From a virus: a stretch of DNA of 64,000 nucleotides. Under the pieces are notes generated by a model, which was not told the origin of the DNA, ran no database searches, and saw only the letters and a program-made list of their open reading frames with translations. The stretch lies in IMG/VR virus record IMGVR_UViG_3300012983_000048. One strand, 5' to 3'. The position numbers were made by a program, and so were the translations under genes. Every line of letters begins with the position of its first letter. The stretch's first letter is position 1. Below, piece after piece: positions 1 to 36,425 of this stretch.

Positions 1-158
1 TTATTGTTAATATTGGATATTGATTTTAAATTTGAACATTCAGCAAATGCATATGATATTGAATTTCCTTTCCATACTACATTATTACAATCAATATGTT
101 CAATTAATTGATTATTTTGAAATGTTGTTGATGTTAAAAATGTTTGTCTTGTCTTCAT
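1..158 (-). CDS. BspA-like LRR protein, N-terminal fragment (gene runs off the window start)
   Basis: ATG at 158..156 is preceded by a GAGGGG SD. Minus-strand translation MKTRQTFLTSTTFQNNQLIEHIDCNNVVWKGNSISYAFAECSNLKSISNIN stays open to position 1. The YAFAECSNLKSI unit matches the LRR repeats of the next gene. Confidence 0.45.
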   Translation of the reverse strand, partial: MKTRQTFLTSTTFQNNQLIEHIDCNNVVWKGNSISYAFAECSNLKSISNINN

Positions 159-160
159 TG

Positions 161-1360
161 TTACCCCTCAAACCCAGTTGATGGAACAACAACACTTGTA
201 TTGGTTCCAATATATTTTATTAACTCTGTTTTATAATTTGATGTTCTTGTTTCATATTCACTTAAATTTATATCTACGACATCTTCAGGTATTTGTGGAA
301 GTTGAGATGTTAAAATGTCTTTAATGTATACACCATCATATGTTCCATATCCATCATATCCTGCATCAATAAAAGACTTTAATGTCAATGATTGTGAACC
401 ATTTGTGTGATTTATTAATATATTATTTGATGTATCTATTGAATATGTTGATGTATTTGAATATGATTCAACAATGATTTCTGTTTTTGATTCATTGAAT
501 TGAATATTCTTGATGTTATCATTTATAGAACCGTTTTGGTAATAAACTTGTGCTGAATTTTTGAAACATTTTATATAAATTGAATCATAACCATAATCAG
601 AACTATAACAATATAGAGTTTCAGCATAATCATTTGTAAAATTAAATGGAATGTATATATTTTTTATTTGAGAAGTTCCATTAAATATATTTTTACAATC
701 TAAAACTTTGTCAGAAAGTATGTAAATATCTCCACTAACATTAATACATCCCTCAAATGTTCCATATAAATCTGTTACTGATGCTGGTATGTTTGGAATA
801 GATGTTATATTATCACAATATGCATATGTTCCTCTTAAGCACTCAATATTTGTTGGATATGTGATAACACCATTAATATTTTTACAAAGTGCATAGGTTT
901 GTGTCATATCTGATACACTATTTGGTATTGTTGGAAATGATGTTAAATTAGAACAATTATAAAATGTAGATTGCAAATTGGTTATATTTTCTGGAATTGT
1001 TGGTGTATATGTTAATGAATGGCAATCTGCAAAACAACCAACAATGTTTGTTACACTATTTGGTATTGTTGGTGCAACATTCAAATTGTTACAACCACAA
1101 AATGTATAACTCATATTTGATACATTTGATGGAATTTCCGGGCATTTTGTTAAATTTGAACAATTATAAAAAGTGTAACTTAAATTTATAACATCATTTG
1201 AAATGTTATGAACCTCTTTAAGGTTATAACAATTGCTGAAACTATATTCCATAGAGTCATTTTCCCATGGAATATTCATTGTATCAACAGAAACTATATT
1301 TGAATTGTTTCTAAAAGTAGTTGGAGATGCAAGTATTTCTTTTGCTAATGTTATTGCCAT
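161..1360 (-). CDS. BspA-type leucine-rich-repeat protein (LRR_5-like), probable receptor-binding/adhesin
   Basis: 399-aa ORF. About 9 tandem 22-24 aa repeats of the form NxxxMxYTFxxCxNLxxxPxIPxSVTN (for example NLSYTFYNCSNLTKCPEIPSNVSNMSYTFCGCNNLNVAPTIPNSVTNIVGCFADCHSL), typical of BspA-like LRR. The C-terminus LIKYIGTNTSVVVP is shared with the upstream small ORF. Confidence 0.65.
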   Translation of the reverse strand: MAITLAKEILASPTTFRNNSNIVSVDTMNIPWENDSMEYSFSNCYNLKEVHNISNDVINLSYTFYNCSNLTKCPEIPSNVSNMSYTFCGCNNLNVAPTIPNSVTNIVGCFADCHSLTYTPTIPENITNLQSTFYNCSNLTSFPTIPNSVSDMTQTYALCKNINGVITYPTNIECLRGTYAYCDNITSIPNIPASVTDLYGTFEGCINVSGDIYILSDKVLDCKNIFNGTSQIKNIYIPFNFTNDYAETLYCYSSDYGYDSIYIKCFKNSAQVYYQNGSINDNIKNIQFNESKTEIIVESYSNTSTYSIDTSNNILINHTNGSQSLTLKSFIDAGYDGYGTYDGVYIKDILTSQLPQIPEDVVDINLSEYETRTSNYKTELIKYIGTNTSVVVPSTGFEG

Positions 1361-3002: not shown

Positions 3003-4136
3003 ATGCCAAAAATTAAGTATAATAGTGGAAACAATTGGGTTGATTTACAAAACAATTTAAAAGCAACTGAAACAACAGATGGTGTATCAAAAATAGCAAC
3101 ATCAGAAATGGTTAGTCAAGGAATTGATGATTATACATATATAACACCAAAAAAATTGAGAGAAGTTGTTAATACATTACCAATTGAAAATATGGTTGTA
3201 CATAAAGCAGGTAATGAATCAATTACTGGATTAAAAACATTTAGAGGAACAGATAATGGTGTTGGTGTTGTTGCATTAAATAGTACATCCACTGGAATTA
3301 ATGACACAGTATCAGATAATCCATATTTTGGAAAAATTGACATTACAGATAAAAATGATATTTCTGTTGGTGTTTTGGGATTTGTAAGAGGTATAGATGA
3401 TACAAAATTGTATAATTCTGCTAAATTAGAAATAGCAAGTAATAATGGGGTTTTTACACCAATTCCATTAGAAATAAGATTTTATGATAATGGTGATATA
3501 ATTGCATATGCACCAACCACAAAAGCAGATGCAAAAGATAATGAAATAGCAACAGCAGGTTGGGTATTAACAAAATTAAGTGAAGAAACATCAGCAAGAA
3601 CAGAGGCTGAAACACAACTACAATCACAAATAACATCAAATACAAATAGTATAACAAATATCAATGCAAGCATTTTGGGTATAAATGGTGATATTTCTGG
3701 AATTAATAATAGTATAACAAATATAAATGGTGATATTACTGAATTAAATAAAGATATTACAGATATAAACACAGAATTGGGAAATAAGCAGGCAACCTTA
3801 ACATCTGAACAACTTGCCGCCGTTAACAGTGGTGTTACATCATCAACACTTGAACAAATTGCATCAAATACATCAAATATAGCAACAAAAGCAGACCAAC
3901 TAACAACATATACAAAAGATGAAGTTGATGGATTGATTGATAATATTACTATTGATGAAACAAATATAGTTCATAAAAGTGGTAATGAAACAATTGATGG
4001 AACAAAAACATTTACTTCAAGTCCAAATGTTCCTACTGTTAGTGATTTATCGGATTCATCACAAAGTGTTGCATCAACAGCATTTGTTCAAAATGTTGTA
4101 AATAATAATAAATTAACAATAACATATGTGGAATAG
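3003..4136 (+). CDS. tail fibre protein (coiled-coil shaft with conserved fibre motifs)
   Basis: 377 aa. Two copies of the phage-fibre signature VHKAGNESITGLKTF / VHKSGNETIDGTKTFTSSPNVPTVSD...ASTAFVQN. Heptad-like repeats ITNINASILGINGDISGINNSITNINGDITELNKDITDIN. Confidence 0.65.
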   Translation: MPKIKYNSGNNWVDLQNNLKATETTDGVSKIATSEMVSQGIDDYTYITPKKLREVVNTLPIENMVVHKAGNESITGLKTFRGTDNGVGVVALNSTSTGINDTVSDNPYFGKIDITDKNDISVGVLGFVRGIDDTKLYNSAKLEIASNNGVFTPIPLEIRFYDNGDIIAYAPTTKADAKDNEIATAGWVLTKLSEETSARTEAETQLQSQITSNTNSITNINASILGINGDISGINNSITNINGDITELNKDITDINTELGNKQATLTSEQLAAVNSGVTSSTLEQIASNTSNIATKADQLTTYTKDEVDGLIDNITIDETNIVHKSGNETIDGTKTFTSSPNVPTVSDLSDSSQSVASTAFVQNVVNNNKLTITYVE

Positions 4137-4139: not shown

Positions 4140-7100
4140 ATGAATTTAAGAGATTATGTATTTGCAAGAAAAATCAATGGACAAACAAGATTGTTTTCAT
4201 TTAAACAAAAGTTGAACTCATCAACAGGTGGGTTTAAACATTTTTGTCTTAAAGGTAAATACTTAACCTCATTCATTAGAATCAAAGCAACACCATCAAC
4301 TGCAACTATTTCAATTGTTTCTGATAATTGTATTCAAAAAGGTAATACAATGATAGTTCCAATTGGTAACACTGTATATGTTACTGTTGAAAATGATGAT
4401 TATTTGACACAAGAGTTTGAATTTGTTGCAGGAAAAGAGGATTATTATTTAGATATTGGATTGGATTTATCTGCTGAGTTTGTATTAAGGGTTGATACAA
4501 CAAAGAATGTTTCTAATACAAATGATAATACATTTATTGTTCCATTTACAAGTGGAACATATTCTGAATTATCAGATGATTCAATTAATATAGATTGGGG
4601 TGATGGAAATAATACAACAATTGAAAATGGTGTCTTTACACAAGAAAATTGTTCTCATATATATAGTAATCCTGGTTCTTATGATATTTCTATTACATCA
4701 TCAAGTGATAAAATACCTGCATTATCATTTAATGATAATTATAGTTCAATAAACAATAATAACTTAAAACTTGTGGAAATTAAAAGTCCATTGGTTCCGA
4801 TGATTGGAACTAATGGAGAATTGGAAACAAATTTACCAAATTTGTTTGGTGGTTGTTCTAATTTATCATCTATTGTTGAGGATATTTTTAAATATAATCA
4901 TCAGATTAAAAATATTTCTGGTTGTTTTGAAGGTTGTAATTCATTATTAACAATACCAGAAAATATATTAATATATACACCAAATATTATAAATGTATCA
5001 TATATGTTCAATAATTGTGATGGTATAGAGGAAGTTCCATTTGGTTTATTAACATCAATAACAACTTTAAGAAACTGTGAAAGTATGTTTAATAATTGTG
5101 ATAATTTAAAAATAATACCAAATGGATTATTTTCAACAAATAAAACTATAACAAACTTCACAAAATGTTTTGAAAATTGTAAAAATTTAACAATTAATCC
5201 AAATATATTTGGTGATGATTATACATATCTTTCTGATATAAATGGAATAAACTTCTCAAATATGTTTTATAGAGAACAATTTGATGGAACCGATTGTGGG
5301 TCAGCACCAGAAATATATAAGTTGGATTATAATGAACTTGGTGGTTCTATAAACTGCTTTGGTGGTATTGGTAACGAAGGATTATTAAACTATTGGGATA
5401 TACCACATACTTGGGGTGGTCCAGAAAAAATAGAATTAACAATGGATTTAGAACCAAATGATGTGAATGCCATATTATATGATTATGATTTATTTGAATT
5501 GCCTTATTATAAAGATGAAGGTTGGAATAGAGTTCAAGTAAATACAACACCTAATGATGCTTCGGTAAATGTTGTTCATGCATTAAATGGATATCCAGAT
5601 GAATATCAACAAAATGTTATTTTTAGTAGAAATCCAGGGGTGATTTATAATGGTGTGGCAAGTGGATTTACATCAACAGAATATTTAAAACTGCCACAAA
5701 CAATACCAAATTGTTCTAAAATAGAATTTGGTGGGAAATTTAAATGCAATGCTACATCTGGTGTTAGATGTATTTTTGAATTATCAAAAAATAATTGGAC
5801 TGGGTTTAATATTGCTATTCATGATGATTTATTAAGACTTTGGTGTTCAAGTAGTAGTAGTAAAATTACTCAATTAACAAAAGACAAATATTATTGGTTT
5901 AAATGTGTATGTGATACAAGTGGTAATAAACTATATATATCAACTGATGGGATAAATTATGTTGAAGATGTTGTTCAAACCACAAATGAGTTTTCTTCAT
6001 ATGTTGATTCTATTGTATATATTGGTATAAGAGGATATAATAAAAGTGAAGTATTTACTGATGGACATATAGATTTAAATGAATGTTATATAAAAATAGA
6101 TGACAGTTTGTGGTGGGATTGTCATGATTTAAATTCCAATGTGGTTTCAGCAAATAACACTAAGAAAGAATTTAGTAGTGGATCATATTATATTAATTTA
6201 AGTGGTGGTGAATATGATGTTATAGTTGTTGGTGCCGGTGGTGGTGGTTCTGGTTGTTCTAAACACTCTGATGGTGCAAGTGGTGCATCTGGAGCTGCAT
6301 TTGTAGGTAAAGTAAACATACCAAAAGGCATTTATAAAATAACAGTTGGTGCAGGTGGCACTGGAACTCCTAGAATGGATTGGAGTCGCGGTGGAACGGG
6401 TGGTAGTTCATCAATTGGTGATGTAATAATTGCTGGTGGTGGAACTGGTGGTGCATTGGATGCATCAGGTGGAACTGGTGGAACTTTGACATTAAATACT
6501 CAACCATTATCATATACTGTTAAATCAAATGGTAATAATGGTGCAGGTGGTTATGGTTGGGGACAAACATCTACAGTTGCATCTCCATATGGTTCTTATG
6601 GTTATGGTGGTTATGGTGGTGCTTGTGATTGGCAAGGTGGTGGAACTGGTGGTAATGGATATATAAGTATTTCCGGTTTATTTGAATTAAATTCATTTAC
6701 AGTCGAAAAGATTGGTTTTTGGAACAATGATGGTATAATTAGTGGATTTACAACTTCTAATTATATTAAACATGCATCATCTATTGGAACAATAACATCA
6801 TTTGAACAAGTTATGAAAGTAACAACAACAACAGATATAACAACACGACAAACAATTTGTGCGGGTGATGCATATTTGGGATTGGGATCATTTATGATAA
6901 TTGATGGTAAAATAAAATTATATGCATCATCAGATGGAACGACAAATGATATTGCTGGAACAGATGGAACTTTAAGTACATTAGATGTATTACCAAATAC
7001 TGAATATTATGTAAAATATCATTGGAATGGAACAGATTATAAAATTGATTTATCAACAAATGGTATAGATTATGTCAACTATATATCAATATCAAAAAAC

Positions 7101-8528
7101 ATTTCACCCAAATTTAATGGTGTGGTTGGTATTGGGACAGATACAGGTGCATCAAACCAATATCCATGGTTTGGCATGATTGATATATCAAAATCATATA
7201 TTAAAATAAATGGTCAATTGTGGTGGAACAATAAAACAAATACTTATAAATATTGGGATGAAAAGTATATCCAAAATTATAGCATTAATGGTACAATGCT
7301 TTCTGTTGAGAATGGTATTGCAAAAGGATTTAATGAAACCAATTATTTGTTATTACCACAATTATTTACCCCAGGAAACTCTAAATGGGAAATAGTATTG
7401 AAATTTAATATTTCTTCATTTAATACAACATCTACATGGATAAATTTATTTGGTAATGGTAATACAACAGATAGAACAGCTGGGATACATATTTTTTATA
7501 ATACATCAGGAAGTATTCGTGTTGAGGCATGTACACTTGGTGCATCATCATGGAATATAATGAATGTCTCTGGAACAACCATATTGACAACAAACAAAGA
7601 TTATTGGGTTAAAGTTCAATATACAGGAACACAATACATTGTCTATATATCTACAGATGGAATTACATATAATCAAGAAGCAAGTGTATCATCATCAGAA
7701 GTAATTGGAGCTTCAGCAACACAATCATTGGGTATTAGTGTATCACACCCAACTTTATATCATAATGGAATCATATATTTAAATGAATCATATATTAAAA
7801 TAGATGATGAAATTTGGTGGGATGGTAAACAATATAACAAGGTTGGATATTATGATAGTAATGGTATATTAACCGGCATAAATGCAACAAATTATATAAC
7901 ATTAAAAAATCAATTTAATCCTTCAACATCACCATGGGAAGTTGGATTAAAATTCAATACTGGTTCAGATTTTTCAACATCCAAATATCCATTTGGATGT
8001 ACAAATGCAGATAATGGGGTTTTATTTGGTTGGGATGTAAATGGTGTTGCAAGACTGTGGGTTTCAAGCGATGGTTCAAGTTGGAATGTTGTGAATAGTT
8101 CATATACTGGTAATTATGCAATGTCATTAAATACTGAATACTATGCAAAAATTATATTTGATGGTAAAAGATATACAACTTTATTATCAAAAGATGGTAA
8201 GACATGGAGATATGGAACACGTGTTGATTCAACAGTTGCCGTCCGTCATTGTACATTCCATTTGGGTGCAGCATGGGATAGATCATCTTCACATTTGCCA
8301 ACCAATGGATATATTGATTTGAATGAATGTTATATCAATATTAATGGTGTAAGATGGTGGGATTGTATTAATAAAGATACATCAAATTATGCTGTAAATA
8401 TTAAAGATAAAGAATTTTTAACATTACAAAATTCAAAAGTTTTAATAAATGTATCAAAAAATGGTTATAATGATAATACTAAATATTATACAATTGCAGA
8501 TGATACAACATTAAATATATCATTATAG
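4140..8528 (+). CDS. giant multidomain receptor-binding / tail fibre protein (PEGA-like N-term, BspA-LRR, Gly-rich segment, 4x LamG/ConA-like repeats)
   Basis: 1462-aa uninterrupted ORF immediately after the fibre gene. BspA-LRR units at roughly aa 230-380 (NISGCFEGCNSLLTIPENI..VSYMFNNCDGIEEVP..CESMFNNCDNLKIIPNGLF). A Gly-rich block (GAGGGGSGCSKHSDGASGASGAAF..GGTGGTLTLN..GYGGYGGACDWQGGGTGGNGY). Four ~180-aa repeats, each ending in (N/S)E(C/S)YIKI(D/N)xxxWWD/N. Confidence 0.75.
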   Translation: MNLRDYVFARKINGQTRLFSFKQKLNSSTGGFKHFCLKGKYLTSFIRIKATPSTATISIVSDNCIQKGNTMIVPIGNTVYVTVENDDYLTQEFEFVAGKEDYYLDIGLDLSAEFVLRVDTTKNVSNTNDNTFIVPFTSGTYSELSDDSINIDWGDGNNTTIENGVFTQENCSHIYSNPGSYDISITSSSDKIPALSFNDNYSSINNNNLKLVEIKSPLVPMIGTNGELETNLPNLFGGCSNLSSIVEDIFKYNHQIKNISGCFEGCNSLLTIPENILIYTPNIINVSYMFNNCDGIEEVPFGLLTSITTLRNCESMFNNCDNLKIIPNGLFSTNKTITNFTKCFENCKNLTINPNIFGDDYTYLSDINGINFSNMFYREQFDGTDCGSAPEIYKLDYNELGGSINCFGGIGNEGLLNYWDIPHTWGGPEKIELTMDLEPNDVNAILYDYDLFELPYYKDEGWNRVQVNTTPNDASVNVVHALNGYPDEYQQNVIFSRNPGVIYNGVASGFTSTEYLKLPQTIPNCSKIEFGGKFKCNATSGVRCIFELSKNNWTGFNIAIHDDLLRLWCSSSSSKITQLTKDKYYWFKCVCDTSGNKLYISTDGINYVEDVVQTTNEFSSYVDSIVYIGIRGYNKSEVFTDGHIDLNECYIKIDDSLWWDCHDLNSNVVSANNTKKEFSSGSYYINLSGGEYDVIVVGAGGGGSGCSKHSDGASGASGAAFVGKVNIPKGIYKITVGAGGTGTPRMDWSRGGTGGSSSIGDVIIAGGGTGGALDASGGTGGTLTLNTQPLSYTVKSNGNNGAGGYGWGQTSTVASPYGSYGYGGYGGACDWQGGGTGGNGYISISGLFELNSFTVEKIGFWNNDGIISGFTTSNYIKHASSIGTITSFEQVMKVTTTTDITTRQTICAGDAYLGLGSFMIIDGKIKLYASSDGTTNDIAGTDGTLSTLDVLPNTEYYVKYHWNGTDYKIDLSTNGIDYVNYISISKNISPKFNGVVGIGTDTGASNQYPWFGMIDISKSYIKINGQLWWNNKTNTYKYWDEKYIQNYSINGTMLSVENGIAKGFNETNYLLLPQLFTPGNSKWEIVLKFNISSFNTTSTWINLFGNGNTTDRTAGIHIFYNTSGSIRVEACTLGASSWNIMNVSGTTILTTNKDYWVKVQYTGTQYIVYISTDGITYNQEASVSSSEVIGASATQSLGISVSHPTLYHNGIIYLNESYIKIDDEIWWDGKQYNKVGYYDSNGILTGINATNYITLKNQFNPSTSPWEVGLKFNTGSDFSTSKYPFGCTNADNGVLFGWDVNGVARLWVSSDGSSWNVVNSSYTGNYAMSLNTEYYAKIIFDGKRYTTLLSKDGKTWRYGTRVDSTVAVRHCTFHLGAAWDRSSSHLPTNGYIDLNECYININGVRWWDCINKDTSNYAVNIKDKEFLTLQNSKVLINVSKNGYNDNTKYYTIADDTTLNISL
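5640..8375 (+). repeat. four tandem in-frame ~540-nt repeats encoding LamG/ConA-like lectin modules inside the giant ORF
   Basis: Repeat openers GFTSTEYLKLPQ / GFTTSNYIKHAS / GFNETNYLLLPQ / GINATNYITLKNQ. Repeat closers NECYIKIDDSLWWDCHDLN / SKSYIKINGQLWWNNKTN / NESYIKIDDEIWWDGKQYN / NECYININGVRWWDCINKD. Confidence 0.6.
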
Positions 8529-8536: not shown

Positions 8537-8935
8537 ATGATAAGAAAAAAATTAACAGGTAGAAAAAATACATCAGCATCATACTTAATTTATAATGATA
8601 AAGATGGTTATAAAATTGGCAATTTAATTTGGGATAAAACAAAAACAGAATTACTTACATTATATGCATATACAACCTTAACAATAAATGTCAATCCTTC
8701 TGATGCAAAAATAACATTTGATGCAGGTGAATATAAACAAAATGGAAACAGTATATCTGTTCCAATTGGAACTGAAGTAAATTATAAAATTGAAAGAGAT
8801 GGTTATGTTCCTATTGAAAGAAGATTGATTATGACATCAGATACTGAATTAAATATTGATTTAATTGAGCTTGTAACTATTACAATAGAACCAACCCCAT
8901 CAAATGCTATTGTAACTATAACATTTATTGAATAA
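8537..8935 (+). CDS. small PEGA/Ig-like beta-sandwich domain protein (tail-associated)
   Basis: 132 aa. VNPSDAKITFDAGEYKQNGNSISVPIGTEVNYKIERDGYVPIERRLIMTSDTELNIDLIE matches the module also seen in ORFs 4140 (N-term), 36426 (-) and 41452 (twice). Confidence 0.5.
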   Translation: MIRKKLTGRKNTSASYLIYNDKDGYKIGNLIWDKTKTELLTLYAYTTLTINVNPSDAKITFDAGEYKQNGNSISVPIGTEVNYKIERDGYVPIERRLIMTSDTELNIDLIELVTITIEPTPSNAIVTITFIE

Positions 8936-10558: not shown

Positions 10559-10944
10559 TAAAAGATAATGAAACATTGAACCAAAGAAGAAAATTATCAT
10601 ATATGATAAATGTTTGGGATGATGTTTCATTACCATATACAATTGATTATGATAATATAATAAACAATGTTATTAAATTTTTTGAGACAGAATCTGAATT
10701 AGTATATCCTGCTAAATCATATTTTGTAGCAATTGTTTATGCTAAATGTTTGGAAAAATATTTTAGCATACCATTCTATGAGTCATTAGATTATGAGGAT
10801 TTATTATTTGATGACAAATATTTTGTGAAATATTCTAATAATAATGATGTATATGATAAAATTATTGAAAAAATTGGTGATATATGGCAATATAAATCAA
10901 TAGATAAAACAGTTGAATATTTTAAAAAAGAGTTTTTAATATGA
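10555..10944 (+). CDS. hypothetical protein
   Basis: 129-aa ORF overlapping its neighbours by 4 nt on each side (translational coupling). Confidence 0.45.
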   Translation: MIKDNETLNQRRKLSYMINVWDDVSLPYTIDYDNIINNVIKFFETESELVYPAKSYFVAIVYAKCLEKYFSIPFYESLDYEDLLFDDKYFVKYSNNNDVYDKIIEKIGDIWQYKSIDKTVEYFKKEFLI

Positions 10945-11738
10945 AAACCATATATGCAATACCAACATATAATTGTAATTTAAATTGTCCTCATTGTGAT
11001 ATACACAAAAGAAAAATACAATTTGATGAAGAAAAATTTATGGAAACACTAATTGATATACATGCAGATAGCATTGTCTTATTTGGTGGTGAACCTTTTT
11101 TAAATAAAGATGTCCTTAAAAAATGTATAGAAACAAATAAAATTAACAGCATATCCACAAATTTATTATTATTAGATAATGACATATTTAACTTAATACA
11201 AGAATATAATATATCATTAGCAACATCATGGAATCCAAAGAGATTTACAACAGAACAATACAAACTATGGTTGAATAATTTATCTAAATTTAAAAATACA
11301 AATACACCAATAGATGTGTTAATAACAATGACAAATGATTTGATAACAATGAGTGATGAAAGATTATTAAAAATATTATCTGATATTGATTATTTGGAAT
11401 CTGTTGATGGTATAGTGTTTGAGCATTTATTAGATAATAACCTTGATAATTTATTTCACCAAAGATGTGATGAGTGGTTATGTAAAATACACAATTTATG
11501 GAAATTTAAATTAAAAAATGTTATTGAAGAACGAGTTTTAAATTGGAATAATGATTGTTCAGATATATGGACATTAGAACCAACAGGTGAATTAAGATTT
11601 GGTTGCCCACAATACATAGGAAGAAAGATTGTTGATAAATGTTTAACATGTGAATTGGTTTCAAAATGCAAACCATGTATGTTACAAAAACATTGTAGTT
11701 TTCCAAAGAAATTATATGAGGTATTAGGCAATGGTTAG
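10941..11738 (+). CDS. radical SAM protein with C-terminal Cys cluster (SPASM/twitch-like), singleton type
   Basis: CNLNCPHC (Cx3Cx2C) at aa 12-19. GGEPFL SAM-binding motif. C-terminal CPQY..CLTCELVSKCKPCMLQKHC. Confidence 0.7.
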   Translation: MKTIYAIPTYNCNLNCPHCDIHKRKIQFDEEKFMETLIDIHADSIVLFGGEPFLNKDVLKKCIETNKINSISTNLLLLDNDIFNLIQEYNISLATSWNPKRFTTEQYKLWLNNLSKFKNTNTPIDVLITMTNDLITMSDERLLKILSDIDYLESVDGIVFEHLLDNNLDNLFHQRCDEWLCKIHNLWKFKLKNVIEERVLNWNNDCSDIWTLEPTGELRFGCPQYIGRKIVDKCLTCELVSKCKPCMLQKHCSFPKKLYEVLGNG

Positions 11739-12795
11739 TTCAGCAATTGATTGTGTTTTGTTTGATATGTGTAATTTAAATTGCAAACATTGTTTTCAAC
11801 AACACAATGTATTTAAATTCAATAAGGATAAAATTGATGAGTTTGTTTATCATATAGATAAAACAATTAGTGATGATATTAAAACCAAATCTATATCAAC
11901 TGTTTTATTATCATTGAGAGGTGGGGAGTTATTCCAGGATAGTTTAGGTGATGATGTATTTGGTCTATATAAACAAATGATAGAAAATATAAATTTTTTA
12001 TGCAAGACAAAATATCCATTAATTAATATTAAATATCATTTTATGACTAATGGAATATATAATAATATTGATAGAGTTGTTGATTTTATTCAATCAGTAA
12101 ATGGTGTCATGACATTATCATATGATCCAATTGGAAGATTTAAAACAGATAAACAATTAGAATTGTTTTATAGAAATTATGAAATTCTTAAAGAGAAAAA
12201 ATTGATAAAAAATATAGCAATAACATTGACAAAGGATTCTATTATAGAATATATTAAGAATAAAAATTTATTAAAACAGTTTTATCAGACAGATATTGAT
12301 ATAAATTATTATATACCAACAATGAATGGATTTGATTTACCATCAGATGATGATATATTTGATTTTTATAAATTTTTATTAGATAATGATATATTTAATG
12401 TGTTATATGTACAAAATATTTTAAACAGTTATATATATGGAACTCCAATTGGTCCAATTTGTTTATGTGATAATACTACTATTATATACAATAACAATTC
12501 ATATAGAAGTTGTAATGTTTATATACCAAATTATAAATTGAGTGACTTTTATGATGATACAAATATAAAAGATTTAGATGCTGTTGAATCAATAAAGAAA
12601 CAAGGTTTAAAGAAAAGAAATTGCATAATGTGTGAATATTATAAAAACTGTTCATATTATTGTTGGATGATGTTGTGTTATAGAAAATTTAAAATGTCAG
12701 AATGTCCCCATAAACGTATATATAAATATATTGAAAATAATTCAAAGATAATAGAAAACTTTAAAATATGGAAAAACACAAATGATATTAAATAA
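11731..12795 (+). CDS. radical SAM/SPASM-like protein, sub-family A (member 1 of 4 tandem)
   Basis: CNLNCKHC. LRGGELFQD. Tail RNCIMCEYYKNCSYYCW..ECPHKRI. Overlaps the previous ORF by 8 nt. Confidence 0.7.
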   Translation: MVSSAIDCVLFDMCNLNCKHCFQQHNVFKFNKDKIDEFVYHIDKTISDDIKTKSISTVLLSLRGGELFQDSLGDDVFGLYKQMIENINFLCKTKYPLINIKYHFMTNGIYNNIDRVVDFIQSVNGVMTLSYDPIGRFKTDKQLELFYRNYEILKEKKLIKNIAITLTKDSIIEYIKNKNLLKQFYQTDIDINYYIPTMNGFDLPSDDDIFDFYKFLLDNDIFNVLYVQNILNSYIYGTPIGPICLCDNTTIIYNNNSYRSCNVYIPNYKLSDFYDDTNIKDLDAVESIKKQGLKKRNCIMCEYYKNCSYYCWMMLCYRKFKMSECPHKRIYKYIENNSKIIENFKIWKNTNDIK

Positions 12796-13882
12796 CATTT
12801 ATCATAAAGAGTATGAAACTAATCTTGGAATTGATTGTATATTGTGGGAACAATGTAATAATAATTGTCTTCATTGTTTTCAACAACATTTAAAACAAGA
12901 TATTGATATAAATTTTTTAAAGACTCTTCCACCAATATTATTAAAAGATATTGATGATGAAATTATAAAAAGAAAAGTATCAAATATAAAATTATCATTG
13001 AGGGGTGGGGAGTTATTCCAGGATAGTTTAGGTGATGAATATTTTACAGAATATGAAAATATTATATCTTATATAAGACATAATTTATCTAATAAGTATC
13101 CAAATATAACAGTAAATTTTGATGTTATTTCAAATGGATTGTTTAAAAAAGTAGATAGATTTATTGATTTTGTTAAGAAGACAAATTGTAAAGTGTCATT
13201 ATCATATGATCCATATGGTAGATTATTTACACAAAAACAAAAAGATGTATTTTTAAATGTATATAATATATTAAATGAAAGTGGATATTTACGTGATATA
13301 TCAATTACACTAACAAAACCTTGTATTCAGCATTATATAAATGGAGATAGTGATTTAGAAATGTTTAGAAAGTGTGATGATATTGATATAAATTATTATA
13401 TACCAAATAAAAATTGGAAATTTTTATTACCAAGTGATGATGATTTATATAATTTTTTCAAATGGTTGGTTGATAATAATTATTTTAATGTTGCATATAT
13501 ACAAAATTTAATAAAAAGTATTATAAACAAAGATTACAGACCAAACAGAAGTTGTTCTTGTAATAATAGAATTATACACAACAAAGGCATCAAAACAACT
13601 AAATGTTCTGAATATATGGGTGGTATGGATGCTAAAGATTTTTATGGTGATGCTTTTGAAACAATGACAGAAGATAATTTTAATATTATTTCTGCATCTA
13701 TTGGTGTTAAAAAAAGAGGTTGCCAAATGTGTAAATATTATGATAAATGTCAAATGTGTTGTTGGTCCTCATTTAATTTTAAACATTATGAAGTTGGGGA
13801 ATGTCCCCATAAAAGAATTACCGAATATATAATAAACAATCAACAAATTATAGAAAGATTTAGGAATACTATTAATGACTGA
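12782..13882 (+). CDS. radical SAM/SPASM-like protein, sub-family A (2 of 4)
   Basis: CNNNCLHC. LRGGELFQD. GCQMCKYYDKCQMCCW..ECPHKRI. Shares a 43/44-nt near-identical tract with ORF 11731. Confidence 0.7.
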   Translation: MILNNIYHKEYETNLGIDCILWEQCNNNCLHCFQQHLKQDIDINFLKTLPPILLKDIDDEIIKRKVSNIKLSLRGGELFQDSLGDEYFTEYENIISYIRHNLSNKYPNITVNFDVISNGLFKKVDRFIDFVKKTNCKVSLSYDPYGRLFTQKQKDVFLNVYNILNESGYLRDISITLTKPCIQHYINGDSDLEMFRKCDDIDINYYIPNKNWKFLLPSDDDLYNFFKWLVDNNYFNVAYIQNLIKSIINKDYRPNRSCSCNNRIIHNKGIKTTKCSEYMGGMDAKDFYGDAFETMTEDNFNIISASIGVKKRGCQMCKYYDKCQMCCWSSFNFKHYEVGECPHKRITEYIINNQQIIERFRNTIND

Positions 13883-15020
13883 ACTTTTAACTTATCCAAA
13901 TTGGTCATATAAAACACCATTTATACCATTTTATAAAGATCCAACCCTTTATGAAATATCTTGTCTTTTATTTGAAAGATGTAATTTAAAATGTAAGTTT
14001 TGTTTTGAAGGTCATAGAAACAATAAAATAGATGTTGATTATATAAGAAAAATACCAAATCTAATAATTGATAACTTCAAAGAAGAATATAAGAAATATA
14101 ACAATATCAAAGAAGTTAATATAATGCTTTGGGGTGGAGAGTTATTTTTTGATGCATTACCTGACTCATTATTTGATGAATATAAGTTGTTGGTAGATAA
14201 TTTTAGAGAGTTATTTAGTGAATCATTTCCAAATATAAAAATTAGATTTTCATGGTTATCAAATGGGGTTTTTACTAAATGGGAAAGAGTGAAAGATATA
14301 ATTGAATATTCTAATGGTATAATTAATTTCTCATATGATCCAATTGATAGGTTTGGTTCATATAAACAAAAGGAATTAATGCTAGAAAATTCTAAAAGAT
14401 TTTATGAATTTGGTTTGAGTGAAGTTGTGTCTATAACACTAACAAAACAAAATATTAATGAATTCATATCAAACACAACAGATATAAACACCATGATGTC
14501 AACCATTGATGTTAATTTTTATATACCAAATAAAAATTGGGAAGAACTAATGCCAACAGATGATGATATATTTAATTTCTTTAAATGGGCATTAGATAAT
14601 AGATTGTTTCATATTAAAGTTATAGAGAAATTAATTTGGTATTATACAACCGAATATATTCAAAGACACTGTGATTGTAAAAGTTGTTCTCAATTAACAT
14701 ATGGTGAATGGAGTGTTGATTGTGCTAAACGAAGTTCTGAACTCCCAACAGAAATGTTTTTTGGTGAATATGCTAATATAATAAATGAAGAAAATAGTAA
14801 TGATATTAAGGTGTCATTGGGTATTAAAAAAAGAGGTTGCCAACTGTGTAAATATTATGATAGATGCCAAATGCCTTGTTGGATAAGTATGGTATTTAGT
14901 GAATATAAAACAACAAGATGCCCATATGAGAAAGCATATGAATATATTGAAATTAATAAAGATATATTATATGATTATATGAATTGGTGTGGTAAGGAAA
15001 TAAAATGTTTAGTAAAATAA
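13875..15020 (+). CDS. radical SAM/SPASM-like protein, sub-family A (3 of 4)
   Basis: CNLKCKFC. LWGGELFFD. GCQLCKYYDRCQMPCW..RCPYEKA. Carries 104-nt and 50-nt tracts identical to ORF 15005. Confidence 0.7.
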   Translation: MTELLTYPNWSYKTPFIPFYKDPTLYEISCLLFERCNLKCKFCFEGHRNNKIDVDYIRKIPNLIIDNFKEEYKKYNNIKEVNIMLWGGELFFDALPDSLFDEYKLLVDNFRELFSESFPNIKIRFSWLSNGVFTKWERVKDIIEYSNGIINFSYDPIDRFGSYKQKELMLENSKRFYEFGLSEVVSITLTKQNINEFISNTTDINTMMSTIDVNFYIPNKNWEELMPTDDDIFNFFKWALDNRLFHIKVIEKLIWYYTTEYIQRHCDCKSCSQLTYGEWSVDCAKRSSELPTEMFFGEYANIINEENSNDIKVSLGIKKRGCQLCKYYDRCQMPCWISMVFSEYKTTRCPYEKAYEYIEINKDILYDYMNWCGKEIKCLVK

Positions 15021-16120
15021 ATTTAGCAAAACAAGATAAAATACATAATGATAATAAGTTTGGTATTGATTGCCTTTTATTTGAAAGGTGTAATTTAAAA
15101 TGTAAGTTTTGTTTAGAAGAACATTCAAATAATAATATTGATTATGATTATATAAGAAAAATACCATATGATATTGTTGATAGAATGAAGGAAGAAATAA
15201 AAACACATAAAGATATCAAAGAAGTTAATATTAGATTATGGGGTGGAGAATTATTTTTTGATGCATTGCCTGACACATTATTTGATGAATATAAGTTGCT
15301 GGTGGATAACTTTAGAAAGTTATTTAGAAAAGATTTGAATGATGTTAATGTAACATTTTCTTGGATTTCTAATGGTGTTTTTACTAAATGGGAAAGAGTG
15401 AAAGATATAATTGAATATTCTAATGGGTTTATAGGATTTAGTTATGATCCAATTGATAGATATTCATCAGACACACAAAAAGAAATGTTTTTTAAAACAG
15501 TAGAATATTTTTATAATAATGACTTATTAAGTGATATATCAATCACATTGACAAAGAGAACAATTAATTGTTATATTAGTGGTAATAGTGATATTGAAAA
15601 GTTAAGAAAATATAAAAAGTTTGATGTTAATTTTTATATACCAAATAAAAATTGGGAAGAACTAATGCCAACAGATGATGATATATTTAATTTCTTTAAA
15701 TGGGCATTAGATAATAGATTGTTTGGTATATATGATATAGAAAAACTTGTTATGACATCAATGAATACTTCAAAAACAATTGGTAGAACCTGTAATTGTG
15801 ATAAACATTTATCACATTGTAAAAATTGTGTAACATATAATTGTGTTAAAAGTTCAACAATATTTGGAAATGATATGTTTTATGCTAATGAAACACAAAA
15901 CATTACAGAAGATTCTGTTTCAAATATTAAAGCATCATTGGGTATATTAAAAAGAGGTTGTTTAACTTGTAAATATTATGGTTCATGCTCAATGCCTTGT
16001 TGGACATCTATATTGTTTAAACATTATAAAATATCAGAATGTCCATATAAGAAAGCACATGATTATATAACAAACAACAAACACATAATAGAGAAATATA
16101 ATGAATACAAAAAATCTTAA
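15005..16120 (+). CDS. radical SAM/SPASM-like protein, sub-family A (4 of 4)
   Basis: CNLKCKFC. LWGGELFFD. GCLTCKYYGSCSMPCW..ECPYKKA. Confidence 0.7.
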   Translation: MFSKINLAKQDKIHNDNKFGIDCLLFERCNLKCKFCLEEHSNNNIDYDYIRKIPYDIVDRMKEEIKTHKDIKEVNIRLWGGELFFDALPDTLFDEYKLLVDNFRKLFRKDLNDVNVTFSWISNGVFTKWERVKDIIEYSNGFIGFSYDPIDRYSSDTQKEMFFKTVEYFYNNDLLSDISITLTKRTINCYISGNSDIEKLRKYKKFDVNFYIPNKNWEELMPTDDDIFNFFKWALDNRLFGIYDIEKLVMTSMNTSKTIGRTCNCDKHLSHCKNCVTYNCVKSSTIFGNDMFYANETQNITEDSVSNIKASLGILKRGCLTCKYYGSCSMPCWTSILFKHYKISECPYKKAHDYITNNKHIIEKYNEYKKS

Positions 16121-16985
16121 TTTATCTATTATACCATTATATCATTGTAATATGAATTGTGATTATTGTTATTTGGGTAATATGAAAAATGATAAAACCA
16201 TATTATCATTAAAAACACTTGATGAAAAAATTGCTGAATTATTACACAATGGTTATGATTTTTCACATATTTCAATATATGGTGGTGAAATAAGTTTATT
16301 AGATAAAAAATATCTTGATAATCTAATATATTTAATTAGAAAATGGGAAATAAATGTAACAACAAATTTGACAAATGATTGGATTATAGATTATTGTAAA
16401 AATAATAATATTCATATAAATGTATCATTAAATGAGGAAAGAAGCAATTATGAATATGTTTTAAAAAAAATAAAAAACATTGATTGTTCAATAACATCTG
16501 TTGTTCTTCCATCATTATTAGAAAAAGATATTAATAGTGTGTTAGAATTTTATAATTTGCTTGGTAAAAACGTTTATTTTTTGGAGTATAACCCGTCAAT
16601 ATATTGTAATAAGTATGATATATCAACAAAAGATTTTATTATATTTTTAAAGAATATTATAAATGAATATAATAAGGGTGACTATTGTTTTGATATAGAA
16701 AATATGAAATATTTAAATGATGATGAATACAATCCAACACAAAGTGGGTTTGTATTTATATTGCCAAATGGAAATTATGGGACAGTTGAATATAAAGATT
16801 CAATAGAACATTTAGTTGAGTTTGAATCAATCAATGAGTGGGAAAAGTATATTGTTAAAGAAAGAAAAGATTATTTAAAAAATTGTTGTTTATGTGAATT
16901 TTTTGATAAGTGTAAAGCAGAGCATTTAAAAACATTTTCAAAACCTTATTGCTCTGGTTTATATGATATTATTAAAAATAAATAA
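16101..16985 (+). CDS. radical SAM protein with short Cys tail
   Basis: CNMNCDYC at aa 16-23. IYGGEISLL. C-terminal CCLCEFFDKCKAEH..YCSG. Confidence 0.65.
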   Translation: MNTKNLNLSIIPLYHCNMNCDYCYLGNMKNDKTILSLKTLDEKIAELLHNGYDFSHISIYGGEISLLDKKYLDNLIYLIRKWEINVTTNLTNDWIIDYCKNNNIHINVSLNEERSNYEYVLKKIKNIDCSITSVVLPSLLEKDINSVLEFYNLLGKNVYFLEYNPSIYCNKYDISTKDFIIFLKNIINEYNKGDYCFDIENMKYLNDDEYNPTQSGFVFILPNGNYGTVEYKDSIEHLVEFESINEWEKYIVKERKDYLKNCCLCEFFDKCKAEHLKTFSKPYCSGLYDIIKNK

Positions 16986-17012
16986 TTGTATAATTTATTA
17001 TAAGGATTAAAG

Positions 17013-17732
17013 ATGGGTGTAACACAAAATCAAAAAATACAAAAAGTTACAGCAAATAATATAGTTGGTGCAATAACTGATTTTAATACAAATGTATTAA
17101 CAAAAGCATATAATCAAGCAACATACCATAGTGGTAATGTTCCAAAATTTTCTGGAACAGCAAATATTGGTTCAAATAATGTTGGGAGTGTTGGTTTTAC
17201 TAATCCAGCAGCATTACCATCAAATCAAATGTTGTCCAAAAGTGTTCCATCTTTAACATTATCTGATACTACTATATCTGCATCATCACTTTGGTCTCAG
17301 ATGTTAACAATGACACGAGCATTAAATAAGATTAGAAAATTTACATCAACATGGTATCATAGACAATTTACAACAGTAAACGATGATGCAAACTCATCTG
17401 ATCCAAATGGTGGTTCATTAATTAATAAAGGTTCAGTTTCAGGGACATGTGTTATAAATGCATCTTTCCCGGCAGTTCCAACAGCATCAAATGCATTAGG
17501 TGGTTCATCAACTTCTTGGGAAAGGAGTGGTACAACCTCAATAACATTGAATCCAAGTAGTGCCCTAACAACAAATGCCCAAATAACAGCTGGAAATATG
17601 AACACAACAATTACAAATTGTTATAATACATGGTATAATACTTGTATATCTGCAAACACATTGACATACAATTTATATACATGCCATTTAAATTGTCATG
17701 GTAATTGTTATGGAACAAGATCAAGGAGATAA
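17013..17732 (+). CDS. Ser/Thr/Asn-rich protein with Cys-rich C-terminal tail, a candidate radical-SAM substrate
   Basis: 239 aa with RBS AAGGA. Low-complexity S/T/N-rich body. The last 40 aa are ITNCYNTWYNTCISANTLTYNLYTCHLNCHGNCYGTRSRR (5 Cys). No enzymatic motif. Sits in the middle of the radical-SAM array. Confidence 0.5.
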   Translation: MGVTQNQKIQKVTANNIVGAITDFNTNVLTKAYNQATYHSGNVPKFSGTANIGSNNVGSVGFTNPAALPSNQMLSKSVPSLTLSDTTISASSLWSQMLTMTRALNKIRKFTSTWYHRQFTTVNDDANSSDPNGGSLINKGSVSGTCVINASFPAVPTASNALGGSSTSWERSGTTSITLNPSSALTTNAQITAGNMNTTITNCYNTWYNTCISANTLTYNLYTCHLNCHGNCYGTRSRR

Positions 17733-18460
17733 TGATGTTAAATAGTGGATTACCATATAGTGATGAAATATTAAACAAACCAATGGATGAACATTTAATT
17801 GTTGATATGTCTGATATTAAGTTTGATGGCATATTAATGTCTCAATATGCAAATATATCTATAATTTATTTAAGAAATACAGATTTAAAAAATATAAAAC
17901 TTGATTTTACAAAATCAGATTATGATTTTAAGTGTGATATGTTAAAGCAATATTTAATTGGTGATATTGAATATCAAATTGTTGAATTAGATGATACTTG
18001 GTTAAAAATCTTGGGAATGTATTATAATACATCATATAATACAAATGATTGTATATTGACAGATGATGAAATGAAGAAATTTATAGAAGATAATGAAAAA
18101 TTAATTATAGATGTTTTAACATTTTGTTTTTCATTACCATTATATCCATTATCAAGGTTAGATATGGTTGAAGAAGATAAATTTACTTTTGATGATGTAA
18201 CACATATTTGTGGTAAACCATTTAATAGTAATATTTGTAACTTGATTAAAAATGAGTGTTTTATGTTATTATTTGATAATAATGATATATCTATTAAACC
18301 ACATTTTTATGATGATATATTTACAGAATCAAACAATAAATTATTTGAATGTGTATCTAAATATACACCATTTACAGCATTATTATATGGGATGAGTAGT
18401 GGTGATGGATGGAAAGAATTTAGTAAAGGTTTAGCAGAATATGTTGATGGGGTAAATTAA
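17732..18460 (+). CDS. hypothetical protein
   Basis: The ORF track starts at 17705, but AGGAG at 17724-17728 followed by ATGATG at 17732 is the likelier start, overlapping the upstream stop as TAATG. Confidence 0.45.
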   Translation: MMLNSGLPYSDEILNKPMDEHLIVDMSDIKFDGILMSQYANISIIYLRNTDLKNIKLDFTKSDYDFKCDMLKQYLIGDIEYQIVELDDTWLKILGMYYNTSYNTNDCILTDDEMKKFIEDNEKLIIDVLTFCFSLPLYPLSRLDMVEEDKFTFDDVTHICGKPFNSNICNLIKNECFMLLFDNNDISIKPHFYDDIFTESNNKLFECVSKYTPFTALLYGMSSGDGWKEFSKGLAEYVDGVN

Positions 18461-18461
18461 T

Positions 18462-19499: not shown

Positions 19500-19503
19500 A
19501 AGC

Positions 19504-22301: not shown

Positions 22302-22334
22302 CCAGTAATAAATATACTTATAAGAGGTAAATTA

Positions 22335-24161: not shown

Positions 24162-24223
24162 ATAAAGATTAAATATTGTCATTAATATTAAATTATTATA
24201 TAATATCTCAAAAGGAGAAATAT

Positions 24224-25105: not shown

Positions 25106-25106
25106 G

Positions 25107-26024: not shown

Positions 26025-26025
26025 A

Positions 26026-27716: not shown

Positions 27717-27717
27717 T

Positions 27718-30153: not shown

Positions 30154-30163
30154 AGGATAAAAT

Positions 30164-31177: not shown

Positions 31178-31178
31178 T

Positions 31179-33642: not shown

Positions 33643-33662
33643 TAAAAATCCTTATTTTTTGT

Positions 33663-36247: not shown

Positions 36248-36425
36248 AATTGTTTCCTGTATCTATTATAAAATATTATATAGATATTTATGGGTTTTTA
36301 ATTATGTTATATTTCTTATTTTGTTTCTAACCATTCATCATATTCTAATGGGTTTATTAACCACCAATTTTCTGTATCTGTATAATTTAATAGATATTTT
36401 CTATAAGTAGCAATATTTTCTCTTT

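Follow-up and report, generated by a model that had tools for sequence, protein, structure and literature searches.

The giant open reading frame in this DNA is an intact modular fiber adhesin gene of an uncultured phage, whose module types are all already known from phage fibers and were put together by recombination. We therefore regard its product, hereafter the giant, as a clear but fairly ordinary modular host-recognition protein. We propose that it is a virion fiber adhesin of a large uncultured phage, and a tail or side fiber (receptor-binding) protein is the role we consider probable. The gene lies within the window, the whole 64,000-nt stretch of DNA analyzed here (Table 1), and is uninterrupted on the + strand, with the length given in the initial annotation. 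An identical 1462-aa protein is on record in both the JGI and ENA assemblies, and on that account we see no sign of splitting or fusion by sequencing error. The domain order is a short N-terminal peptide, a PEGA-like and a PKD-like sandwich and a five-unit BspA/DUF285 leucine-rich repeat (LRR) solenoid, followed by repeat R1, a glycine-rich domain, repeats R2 to R4 and a short conserved tail.

Table 1. Giant gene, its segments and neighboring genes (positions in the window; residues of the giant)
Feature	Position (nt)	Residues (aa)	Strand	Remarks
Second LRR protein gene, 5' end	1..158		-	~52 codons in window, rest beyond window start
399-aa BspA-type LRR protein	161..1360		-	PF13306 LRR_5 E 7.6e-16, 58.6 bits
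Upstream 377-aa fiber protein	3003..4136		+	Tail-fiber-like N-terminus, coiled coil, C-terminal BppL_N motif
Whole gene, modular fiber/adhesin protein	4140..8528		+	1462 aa, one ORF without internal stop
N-terminal segment, candidate virion-attachment peptide	4140..4271	1-44	+	Conserved with P0002 N-terminus
PEGA-like/Head_fiber_dimeric-like beta-sandwich	4272..4466	45-109	+	From hhalign
PKD-like beta-sandwich	4479..4754	114-205 (approximate)	+	WGDG motif; PKD_4 E 0.003, PKD E 0.022, both sub-threshold
LRR solenoid, BspA/DUF285 type	4812..5477	225-446	+	Five 27-residue units (aa 232-366) and C-terminal cap
Linker	5478..5627	447-496	+	64% identical to P0002; low pLDDT
Repeat R1	5628..6125	497-662	+	Ends YIKIDDSLWWD
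Glycine-rich domain (Pfam Gly_rich_2)	6126..6683	663-848	+	27% Gly
ELNSFTVEKIGFW, remnant of last strand of ancestral R1 (recombination scar)	6684..6722	849-861	+	P0002 match
Repeat R2	6723..7235	862-1032	+	Ends YIKINGQLWWN
Repeat R3	7266..7829	1043-1230	+	Ends YIKIDDEIWWD; structure model made
Repeat R4	7845..8369	1236-1410	+	Ends YININGVRWWD; 57% identical to P0002 R4
Conserved C-terminal tail	8370..8525	1411-1462	+	57% identical to P0002 C-terminus
Downstream 132-aa PEGA-like protein	8537..8935		+	PF25641 E 4.6e-6, PEGA E 0.0045, both sub-threshold

Alignment with its relatives shows the giant gene to be a recombinational mosaic. P0002, the closest full-length relative, is 43-48% identical and lacks the glycine-rich domain. 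R1 is 60% identical to repeat 1 of P0156 and only 33% to any P0002 repeat, and the core of the glycine-rich domain shares 82% of its residues and 85% of its nucleotides with the C-terminal domain of P0156, which comes from a different phage contig. In the 13-residue scar ELNSFTVEKIGFW, 9 residues match P0002 657-682 ('DLNEFTVKR...VGFW'), the end of that protein's first repeat. The comparison shows that in a P0002-like backbone most of the first ConA repeat was swapped for a cassette of R1 and the glycine-rich domain, related to the fiber gene of another phage. The 3' ends of the repeats are conserved (62-63 bp, 77-79% nt identity) and are plausible crossover sites. This direct evidence of mosaicism supports the earlier suggestion of modular, exchangeable binding units. 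The glycine-rich block noted at the same time was also borne out, matching PF21722 above threshold (E 1e-8, 35.9 bits; cutoff 24.3) as well as the PHROG tail-fiber families phrog_863 (E 5e-17) and phrog_6202 (E 5e-6).

The genomic neighborhood is that of a fiber-gene cluster. The 377-aa upstream protein matches BppL_N (E 5e-15) and PHROG tail collar fiber and proximal tail fiber families, shares 58% identity over its last 62 aa with the C-terminal end of the protein encoded upstream of P0002, and is a candidate proximal partner of the giant. The genes flanking the giant are syntenic between loci; the downstream 132-aa protein, 44% identical to L001 7123..7977, has its syntenic counterpart in the gene that follows P0002. 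The P0002 gene follows a Phage_tail_C protein, that of P0156 sits two genes ahead of a Phage_tail_APC gene, and most annotated PHROG matches of other members of the repeat family are tail fiber or tail. No tail tube, baseplate or sheath gene lies within the 64,000-nt window, so the link of the giant to the tail comes only from its fiber-type neighbors. Against a tail fiber, moreover, we found no evidence in the giant of a recognized fiber N-terminal anchor domain or of trimerization.

The main alternative is a decoration fiber on the capsid or neck, comparable to crassvirus head fibers or T4 Hoc, whose lectin-fold and LRR domains would grip environmental glycans (mucus, plant polysaccharide) rather than a host receptor. 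Decoration proteins are typically beads-on-a-string chains of Ig-like and lectin-like domains, as is the chain proposed here, and related contigs come from animal-gut MAGs. Resemblance to Pfam Head_fiber_dimeric is seen in both the N-terminal module (aa 45-109) and the 132-aa protein encoded downstream. Though the N-terminal module has no Pfam match in the giant, it aligns by hhalign with the 132-aa protein (97.3%, E 2e-11) and with P0008 (93.6%), and the corresponding aa 47-97 of P0002 match PF25641 below threshold (E 5e-6). Short N-terminal peptides anchor the head fibers of PhiCrAss001 to its capsid (PMC10172136). Residues 1-44 of the giant, predicted with low confidence (pLDDT 35-46) and free of any hydrophobic or signal-like stretch, are a candidate virion-attachment peptide. 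A capsid or neck location thus keeps a small share of probability because PF25641 is named after a crassvirus head fiber (PMC10172136). However, the immediate neighbors match the tail-fiber types BppL_N, tail collar fiber, Phage_tail_C and Phage_tail_APC, proteins of the repeat family carry Collar and Phage_tail_fib domains fused at their N-termini, and glycine-rich domains like that of the giant match PHROG tail-fiber families, so we consider a decoration fiber unlikely.

The lectin-like part of the protein had been described as four tandem repeats, each closing with YIKI. There are indeed four homologous repeats, but they are arranged as one plus three, with the glycine-rich domain between R1 and R2-R4 (aa 862-1410), and the fourth motif departs from YIKI (Table 1). 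Exactly four copies of the pattern Y[IV][KN]I[ND]xx.WW[DN] are present in the giant (aa 650-660, 1020-1030, 1218-1228 and 1398-1408), and the units that it terminates (~165-190 aa) are 25-36% identical to one another (blastp E 1e-8 to 6e-25), a mutual homology that, by these alignments, far exceeds what chance would give. No Pfam ConA-clan model recognizes the repeats, and their family, with 4310 clusters in metagenomes, has no model in Pfam or PHROGs and no tblastn match in 50,697 GenBank phage records. An AF2 model of R3 (pLDDT 85.8, pTM 0.85) supports a ConA/LamG-like beta-sandwich as the predicted fold of R1-R4. With this model, Foldseek returned 220 PDB matches at E<=1e-3, led by CBM40 (E 2e-6) and including NanB, BoNT Hc, VIP36, pentraxins and LNS domains; the best 50 all have the ConA-like fold (lectin, LNS, pentraxin, CBM40). 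In BFVD it found 326 viral matches at E<=1e-3, tail fiber and baseplate proteins among them. On the strength of this fold glycan targeting is plausible. The residues that stay invariant across the repeats seem to have a structural role, and no ligand-binding residues were identified. That the giant is instead a polysaccharide-degrading, tailspike-like enzyme with glucanase-type (GH16/GH43-associated) catalytic or accessory modules is very improbable: the ConA-like clan contains glycoside hydrolases and relatives match GH43_C2 and DUF1349 marginally, but the GH43_C2 matches lie below or at threshold and Pfam describes that domain as a non-catalytic C-terminal one, the GH16 catalytic motif E-x-D-x-x-E occurs nowhere in the giant, and the fold search ranks non-catalytic lectins and CBMs highest.

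The LRR solenoid (pLDDT >90) keeps an exact 27-residue register with the consensus FxxCxxLxxIPxxLFxxN and aligns with the neighboring LRR_5 protein (hhalign 97.7%, E 2e-12) and with phrog_9915 (E 7e-20). It matches DUF285 at E 3e-4 (21 bits; cutoff 25), and its best Foldseek PDB matches are LRR proteins, but with E of only 0.01-0.03. Two BspA-type LRR genes had been noted on the opposite strand near the start of the window: one is complete there, but the second contributes only its first ~52 codons and in full (349 aa; L002 262..1311, - strand) matches LRR_5/DUF285 weakly. The domain before the solenoid, which was missed in the initial annotation, is PKD-like (pLDDT >90), and its relatives do pass PKD models. 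The linker behind the solenoid is possibly a degenerate PEGA-like segment; the C-terminal tail gave no hhalign match to the PEGA-like profile. The suggested acquisition of the LRR modules from the host finds no support. The PKD and LRR module has its closest relatives (36-39% over ~330 aa) among phage-type proteins that carry Head_fiber_dimeric repeats, cellular Bacteroidales-type proteins match it less well and over shorter stretches, and no close relative turned up when 185,579 species genomes were scanned by pattern. The same observations make it hard to credit that the giant is a non-virion 'moron', a BspA-type surface adhesin recently taken from a bacterial host and expressed to its benefit; LRR_5/DUF285 modules are a typical feature of surface proteins in Bacteroidales and Mollicutes, and the cellular matches carry BACON, Mfa-like and DUF4988 domains, but a sequence scan of the giant found neither a signal peptide nor a lipobox nor a transmembrane segment, and its gene is located within the fiber-gene cluster.

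We therefore return to a tail or side fiber as the preferred reading. Its beads-on-a-string chain would show the host envelope several independent binding surfaces, namely four lectin-fold beads that have diverged from one another, the concave face of the LRR and a glycine-rich knob, and so may provide multivalent, reversible and probably glycan-directed adsorption. The analysis establishes ORF integrity, the domain folds and homologies, the mosaicism and the fiber-gene context; virion presence, tail location, glycan ligands and oligomeric state we infer. The initial annotation is thus partly confirmed in what it observed and partly supported in what it concluded. PF13306 (LRR), PF13385 (LamG) and PF08308 (PEGA) all stay below threshold on the giant itself, but the fold and family calls were right at superfamily level: hhalign to the LRR_5 neighbor and the 27-residue periodicity bear out a BspA/DUF285-type LRR, structure prediction and fold search a ConA/LamG-like fold, and hhalign a PEGA-like N-terminal module. 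Its description of the architecture as unusual for a phage fiber was overstated, given the viral ConA/LamG matches above, the LRR module within annotated tail proteins of cultured phages, the PHROG tail-fiber matches of the glycine-rich domains and the recurrence of the same partner domains, including Collar and Phage_tail_fib, across the repeat family.

Several modules have counterparts in known systems. The solenoid shares the 27-residue F-x-x-C-x-x-L-x-x-I-P units of BspA-type LRR_5/DUF285 proteins and is homologous to many PF03382/PF13306 proteins, though it reaches the Pfam cutoff of neither LRR_5 nor DUF285; annotated tail proteins of Phapecoctavirus and Klebsiella phages share the module at 29-31% identity, and ORF287 of the Vibrio jumbo phage pir03 is annotated among phage BspA-type LRR/DUF285 proteins (PMC7765460). 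With the preceding PKD-like domain it forms one conserved PKD, LRR and cap unit common to the uncultured-phage proteins P0003-P0008, of which P0005, P0006 and P0008 join it to three to six domains of the PF25641/PEGA type. Residues 45-109 are homologous to domains matching PF25641/PEGA, as in the dimeric head fiber gp29 of PhiCrAss001, but the giant has only one clear copy, below the Pfam threshold, and its neighbors are tail-fiber-like rather than capsid genes. Its compact glycine-rich domain with repeated GGxGG recalls the distal host-recognition tips of Pam3 gp24 and Salmonella phage S16 gp38 (PMC9608196), and is C-terminal, as in those proteins, in 5 of 7 relatives within the repeat family, whereas in the giant it is internal, with three more lectin-fold domains after it. 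We found no sequence link from it to any solved structure; a weak similarity to the ALK/LTK glycine-rich domain (ALK_LTK_GRD, Pfam E 0.2, hhalign 72%) makes a relationship to the ALK type only suggestive, and a polyglycine-lattice architecture is what we would expect. Among solved structures, the repeat model is best matched by CBM40 sialic-acid-binding modules, L-type lectins, pentraxins and neurexin/agrin LNS domains (E 2e-6 to 8e-5, TM 0.45-0.60, identity 8-18%), a likeness of fold and not of family, and the repeat profile touches a pentraxin weakly (E 0.11). The repeats have the same fold as phage LamG/ConA jellyrolls such as the cyanophage 'baseplate wedge initiator', the tail fiber of Stenotrophomonas phage DLP_5 and 'LamG domain-containing' proteins (BFVD E down to 2.5e-8, TM 0.56-0.67), but at only 11-25% identity they form a sequence family of their own, ending G-x-I-D-L-x-E-x-Y-I-K-I-N-G-x-x-W-W. 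Such phage jellyrolls often occur in several copies within large fiber or baseplate proteins, as they do in the giant.

The giant protein is read in one uninterrupted frame, and an identical protein is recorded twice, on a 106.5-kb JGI contig and in an ENA assembly; nothing therefore hints at a frameshift artefact, and the initial annotation's caveat that sequencing errors might have split the gene falls away. That annotation had described an unusual phage fibre with a PEGA-like module, BspA-type leucine-rich repeats (LRR) possibly acquired from the host, a Gly-rich block and four tandem LamG-like repeats, an account that proved largely right as description and partly right as interpretation. 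We consider it reasonably probable that the giant is a fibre adhesin carried on the virion, probably as a tail or side fibre, whose several binding modules, independent of one another, would be presented for multivalent, likely glycan-directed adsorption. Its domain folds, its mosaic make-up and its setting among fibre genes are demonstrated; in this reading we infer virion location, ligand and oligomeric state alike.

Features of the giant fibre protein and its surroundings (positions in nt of the window, or in aa of the protein where marked)
Feature	Position	Strand	Remarks
Giant fibre protein	4140..8528	+	1462 aa
PEGA-like module	aa 45-109		
PKD-like sandwich	aa ~114-205		WGDG motif
LRR units	aa 232-366		five units, exact 27-residue register, consensus FxxCxxLxxIPxxLFxxN
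Repeat R1	aa 497-662		ends in YIKI..WW-type motif (aa 650)
Gly-rich domain			186 residues, 27% Gly, between R1 and R2
Residues directly after Gly-rich domain	aa 849-861		ELNSFTVEKIGFW
Repeat R2	aa 862-1032		ends in YIKI..WW-type motif (aa 1020)
Repeat R3	aa 1043-1230		ends in YIKI..WW-type motif (aa 1218)
Repeat R4	aa 1236-1410		ends in YIKI..WW-type motif (aa 1398)
LRR_5 neighbour	161..1360	-	399 aa
Upstream protein	3003..4136	+	377 aa; tail-fibre N-terminal matches, coiled coil, C-terminal BppL_N motif
BppL_N module of upstream protein	3942..4127	+	aa 314-375
Downstream neighbour	8537..8935	+	132 aa, PEGA-like
Radical-SAM array	10941..32868	+	~22 kb, 25 consecutive tightly packed ORFs
Second fibre-type cluster	32869..40815	-	PHROG tail fibre and tail collar matches
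Gene in second cluster	32869..33642	-	54% to L003 10821..12446
Gene in second cluster	34121..36247	-	parts shared with three different genes on other phage contigs
Fibre proteins with BppL_N module	37336..38613, 39250..40815	-	
Gamma-glutamyl cyclotransferase-like protein	43929..44348		
Replication/recombination genes	44333..45367, 46538..48544, 49522..50571, 51226..53337		SbcD-like and SbcC/gp46-like nucleases, NAD-dependent DNA ligase, DNA methyltransferase

Neither the whole giant nor any of eight separate segments of it matched LRR_5, Laminin_G_3 or PEGA, the Pfam models named for checking its domains. Membership of these Pfam families was therefore dropped in favour of profile-profile and fold evidence, from which the LRR, ConA/LamG-like and PEGA-like assignments are still recovered at superfamily level. 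An NCBIfam search gave nothing meaningful.

The four conserved repeat endings are present, the motif Y[IV][KN]I[ND]xx.WW[DN] occurring four times, and R1-R4 are mutually homologous (25-36% identity, E 1e-8 to 6e-25, pairwise blastp), though not all in tandem, as the Gly-rich domain parts R1 from R2-R4. Their LamG-like character holds as a fold but not as a Pfam family: Laminin_G_3 (PF13385) found nothing on the whole protein or its segments, and the sole ConA-clan match, DUF1349, stayed at 15.7-17.6 bits, below its threshold of 32.4. R3 was modelled with AlphaFold2 from an alignment of all eight repeats in the giant and its orthologue P0002; the model is confident (pLDDT 85.8, pTM 0.85) and all-beta, with 15 strands and the two-sheet jellyroll of the ConA-like superfamily. 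Foldseek searches of the PDB with this model returned 220 matches at E<=1e-3, and all of the top 50 had the ConA-like fold, among them CBM40, the NanB lectin domain, BoNT Hc, VIP36/ERGIC-53, pentraxins and neurexin/agrin LNS; among the viral structures of BFVD, 326 matches reached the same level, many of them named as LamG/ConA-like, tail fibre or baseplate proteins. The repeat profile, searched against PDB sequences, recovered just one pentraxin (E 0.11). Invariant residues of the repeats are Y27, E42, K46, Y113, G156, G168, I170 and W185 (R3 numbering).

For the BspA-type LRR, homology and periodicity stand while the Pfam match does not. LRR_5 (PF13306, threshold 27.7 bits) was silent on the whole giant and on aa 111-430 even at E<=10, but the region aligns with the LRR_5 neighbour (hhalign 97.7%, E 2e-12), itself a PF13306 match at E 7.6e-16, and forms the Leu/Phe/Cys-rich periodic solenoid of the LRR_5 type. 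The region was modelled at pLDDT >90, and its best Foldseek PDB matches are LRR proteins, albeit weak ones (E 0.01-0.03). DUF285 (PF03382) scored 21.0 bits on aa 231-352 (E 3e-4), below its 25-bit threshold, which relatives aligned over the same region do clear. N-terminal to the LRR lies a PKD-like domain that had been overlooked, modelled as a confident beta-sandwich with PKD scores (PF00801/PF18911) of 15.2-18 bits, below the cutoffs of 23.5 and 27. The N-terminal PEGA-like module likewise survives through homology to PEGA/Head_fiber_dimeric-matching domains, aligning with the 132-aa neighbour (hhalign 97.3%) and with the phage-type relative P0008 (93.6%), though PEGA (PF08308) and Head_fiber_dimeric (PF25641) found nothing on aa 1-110, and P0002 itself scores only 26.6 bits, short of the cutoff of 30; the model of the module in the giant has seven short strands at pLDDT 71-80. 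The last 52 aa of the giant were also tried as a PEGA-like domain and rejected, hhalign being negative.

The Gly-rich block was confirmed as Gly_rich_2 (PF21722; 32.5 bits for the full protein, 35.9 bits with E 1e-8 for the segment alone, threshold 24.3), the only Pfam model above threshold on the giant. ALK_LTK_GRD gave a weak signal (E 0.2), and the domain aligned with the ALK_LTK_GRD-type domain of P0062 (hhalign 72%, E 3e-5) over 55 columns. Neither the domain nor its profile had a relevant match among PDB sequences, and tblastn against GenBank phages found none, in a search whose low-complexity filter may hide Gly-rich matches. In Pam3 gp24 and S16 gp38, a polyglycine-lattice domain forms the receptor-binding tip (PMC9608196). 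From its Pfam family, the weak ALK_LTK_GRD signal and the hhalign match, the domain of the giant is plausibly of this polyglycine-lattice type. Five relatives carry a Gly-rich domain at the C-terminus (P0156, P0206, P0134, P0202 and P0063), in P0064 it is internal, and P0077 has it in both positions.

Comparison with two related proteins points to how the giant was assembled. Only one relative, P0002 (1283 aa), spans its full length. The two are collinear, sharing 43-64% identity across aa 1-496 and 38-57% from R2 to the C-terminus; P0002 is without the Gly-rich block, and its four repeats are truly tandem. R1 of the giant shares only 33% identity with any repeat of P0002 but 60% with the first one in P0156, a fibre protein of 674 aa on a different phage contig (L003, 72 kb, with Phage_tail_APC and GroES/GroEL genes), and the Gly-rich domain matches the C-terminal domain of P0156 at 82% amino acid and 85% nucleotide identity. 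The step in identity at this cassette is sharp (82% vs 33-48%), and elsewhere the similarity between the window contig and L003 is limited to a few shorter stretches (68-79% nucleotide identity). Residues 849-861 match the end of the first repeat of P0002 (DLNEFTVKR...VGFW). These alignments show the gene to be a mosaic, in which R1 and the Gly-rich domain are imported and the 13 residues are the scar of the domain that they replaced. At the nucleotide level, the last 62-63 bp at the 3' end of each repeat are 77-79% identical among the repeats, and these conserved ends could serve as crossover sites. No further module copies, whether cassettes or shufflon-type or DGR-type template repeats, were found within the window. 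Modular fibre proteins set phage host range, and the giant offers an unusually legible case of fibre rebuilding, with a backbone, an imported cassette and the scar, though it leaves the understanding of phage adsorption unchanged.

The ConA-like repeat belongs to a family that is easily missed. A word-indexed search with the repeat profile yielded three proteins only, and exhaustive HMMER against 1.84 billion cluster representatives (clusters at 50% identity) was needed to reveal at least 4310 proteins at E<=1e-3 (3030 at E<=1e-10, 732 at E<=1e-30), most with two to nine copies of the module, which is ConA-like, ~170 aa long and closes with G-x-I-D-L-x-E-x-Y-I-K-I-N-G-x-x-W-W. It lies outside all Pfam and PHROG models: among 42 sampled members, Pfam matches on the repeat are marginal, to DUF1349, GH43_C2 and Laminin_G_3, the last at E<=1e-3 in 2 of the 42, while a third, P0176, just clears the Laminin_G_3 cutoff (27.7 vs 27.6 bits). 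Partner domains in the sample include F5/8 type C, Gly_rich_2, ALK_LTK_GRD, LRR_5, Head_fiber_dimeric, Collar and Phage_tail_fib, and of the annotated PHROG families matched, most are tail fibre or tail. R2-R4 had no tblastn match in 50,697 GenBank phage records; members whose source was traced belonged to uncultured phage-like contigs and to gut MAGs, and a motif scan of species genomes gave three true members, in gut MAGs labelled Alphaproteobacteria, Lachnospiraceae and Bacilli. The MAG-binned contigs with members (L005, L006 and L007) have a locus GC of 31-38%, the alphaproteobacterial one coming from roe deer cecum. Such a lectin-fold family of uncultured phages, missed by current profile libraries, affects how receptor-binding proteins are annotated and which modules are chosen for host-range engineering. 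It is possible, if on balance doubtful, that this module defines a very large unmodelled family of phage-fibre glycan-binding beads, in which recombination at the conserved repeat ends would reshuffle copy number and order, and that a polyglycine-type receptor-binding domain, normally the distal tip, can work mid-chain; in that case the host would be recognised laterally and multivalently, not through a tip.

The giant lies within a small plus-strand cluster of fibre-type genes, as befits a tail fibre or receptor-binding protein, and its neighbours match BppL_N, tail collar fibre and Phage_tail_C. The loci of its relatives carry Phage_tail_C and Phage_tail_APC and have flanks syntenic with its own: the last 62 aa of the upstream 377-aa protein are 58% identical to the end of a 970-aa protein upstream of P0002, and the downstream 132-aa protein shares 44% identity with the gene that follows P0002. 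A head or neck decoration fibre, the main rival, is suggested by the Head_fiber_dimeric-like modules; with tail-type genes around the giant and its relatives, we regard it as unlikely. An enzyme is also unlikely, as a GH16-type catalytic motif was sought in the giant and none found, and so is a host-moron protein, a signal peptide and a transmembrane segment having been sought with the same outcome. No tail tube, sheath or baseplate genes occur in the window. A BppL_N-containing module of ~50-110 aa recurs in three fibre proteins of the window and at the C-terminus of the 970-aa protein (39-58% identity) and may serve these proteins as a common junction or trimerisation element. The second fibre cluster is partly common to the genes flanking P0002 and P0156. 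Between the two fibre clusters, the array of radical-SAM ORFs has an N-terminal CxxxCxxC motif in 15 of 25, Radical_SAM/Fer4_12 (Pfam) in 7 of 9 sampled and many mutual BLAST relatives; a paralogue array of this size looks highly unusual in a phage genome. On L003, 16439..18025 and 6467..6886 encode GroES-/GroEL-like chaperonins and a GGACT-family protein. No tRNAs were found, and so they give no host clue; the closest cultured phages to the gp46-like nuclease, jumbo phages of Yersinia, Vibrio and Erwinia, are only ~31% identical, so the lineage is not assignable.

The suggestion that the LRR was taken from the host fared less well. In a word-indexed search of 5.8 billion proteins with the giant, 59 of 60 relatives matched the PKD+LRR unit (aa ~115-446) only. 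The closest of these, P0005, P0006 and P0008 (36-39% identity over ~330 aa), are phage-type, with three to six Head_fiber_dimeric/PEGA domains after the unit, and the uncultured-phage proteins P0003 and P0004 each have four copies of it; cellular-looking matches (with BACON, Mfa-like and DUF4988 domains) gave weaker, shorter alignments. A pattern scan based on a five-sequence alignment and run across 185,579 species genomes found no close relative, and an IMG/VR scan with the giant had no match. Recent host acquisition is therefore not supported by the PKD+LRR relatives and the empty species-genome scan. The architecture is also less exceptional than had been claimed, because all of its module types are already known from phage fibres; what is of real but modest interest is how cleanly the recombination can be read, the position of the Gly-rich domain in mid-chain and the size of a lectin-fold repeat family that has no profile. 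BspA/DUF285 proteins are annotated in a Vibrio jumbo phage (PMC7765460), and among cultured phages, Phapecoctavirus and Klebsiella phages carry the PKD+LRR unit itself under annotated tail proteins, at ~29-31% identity to that of the giant.
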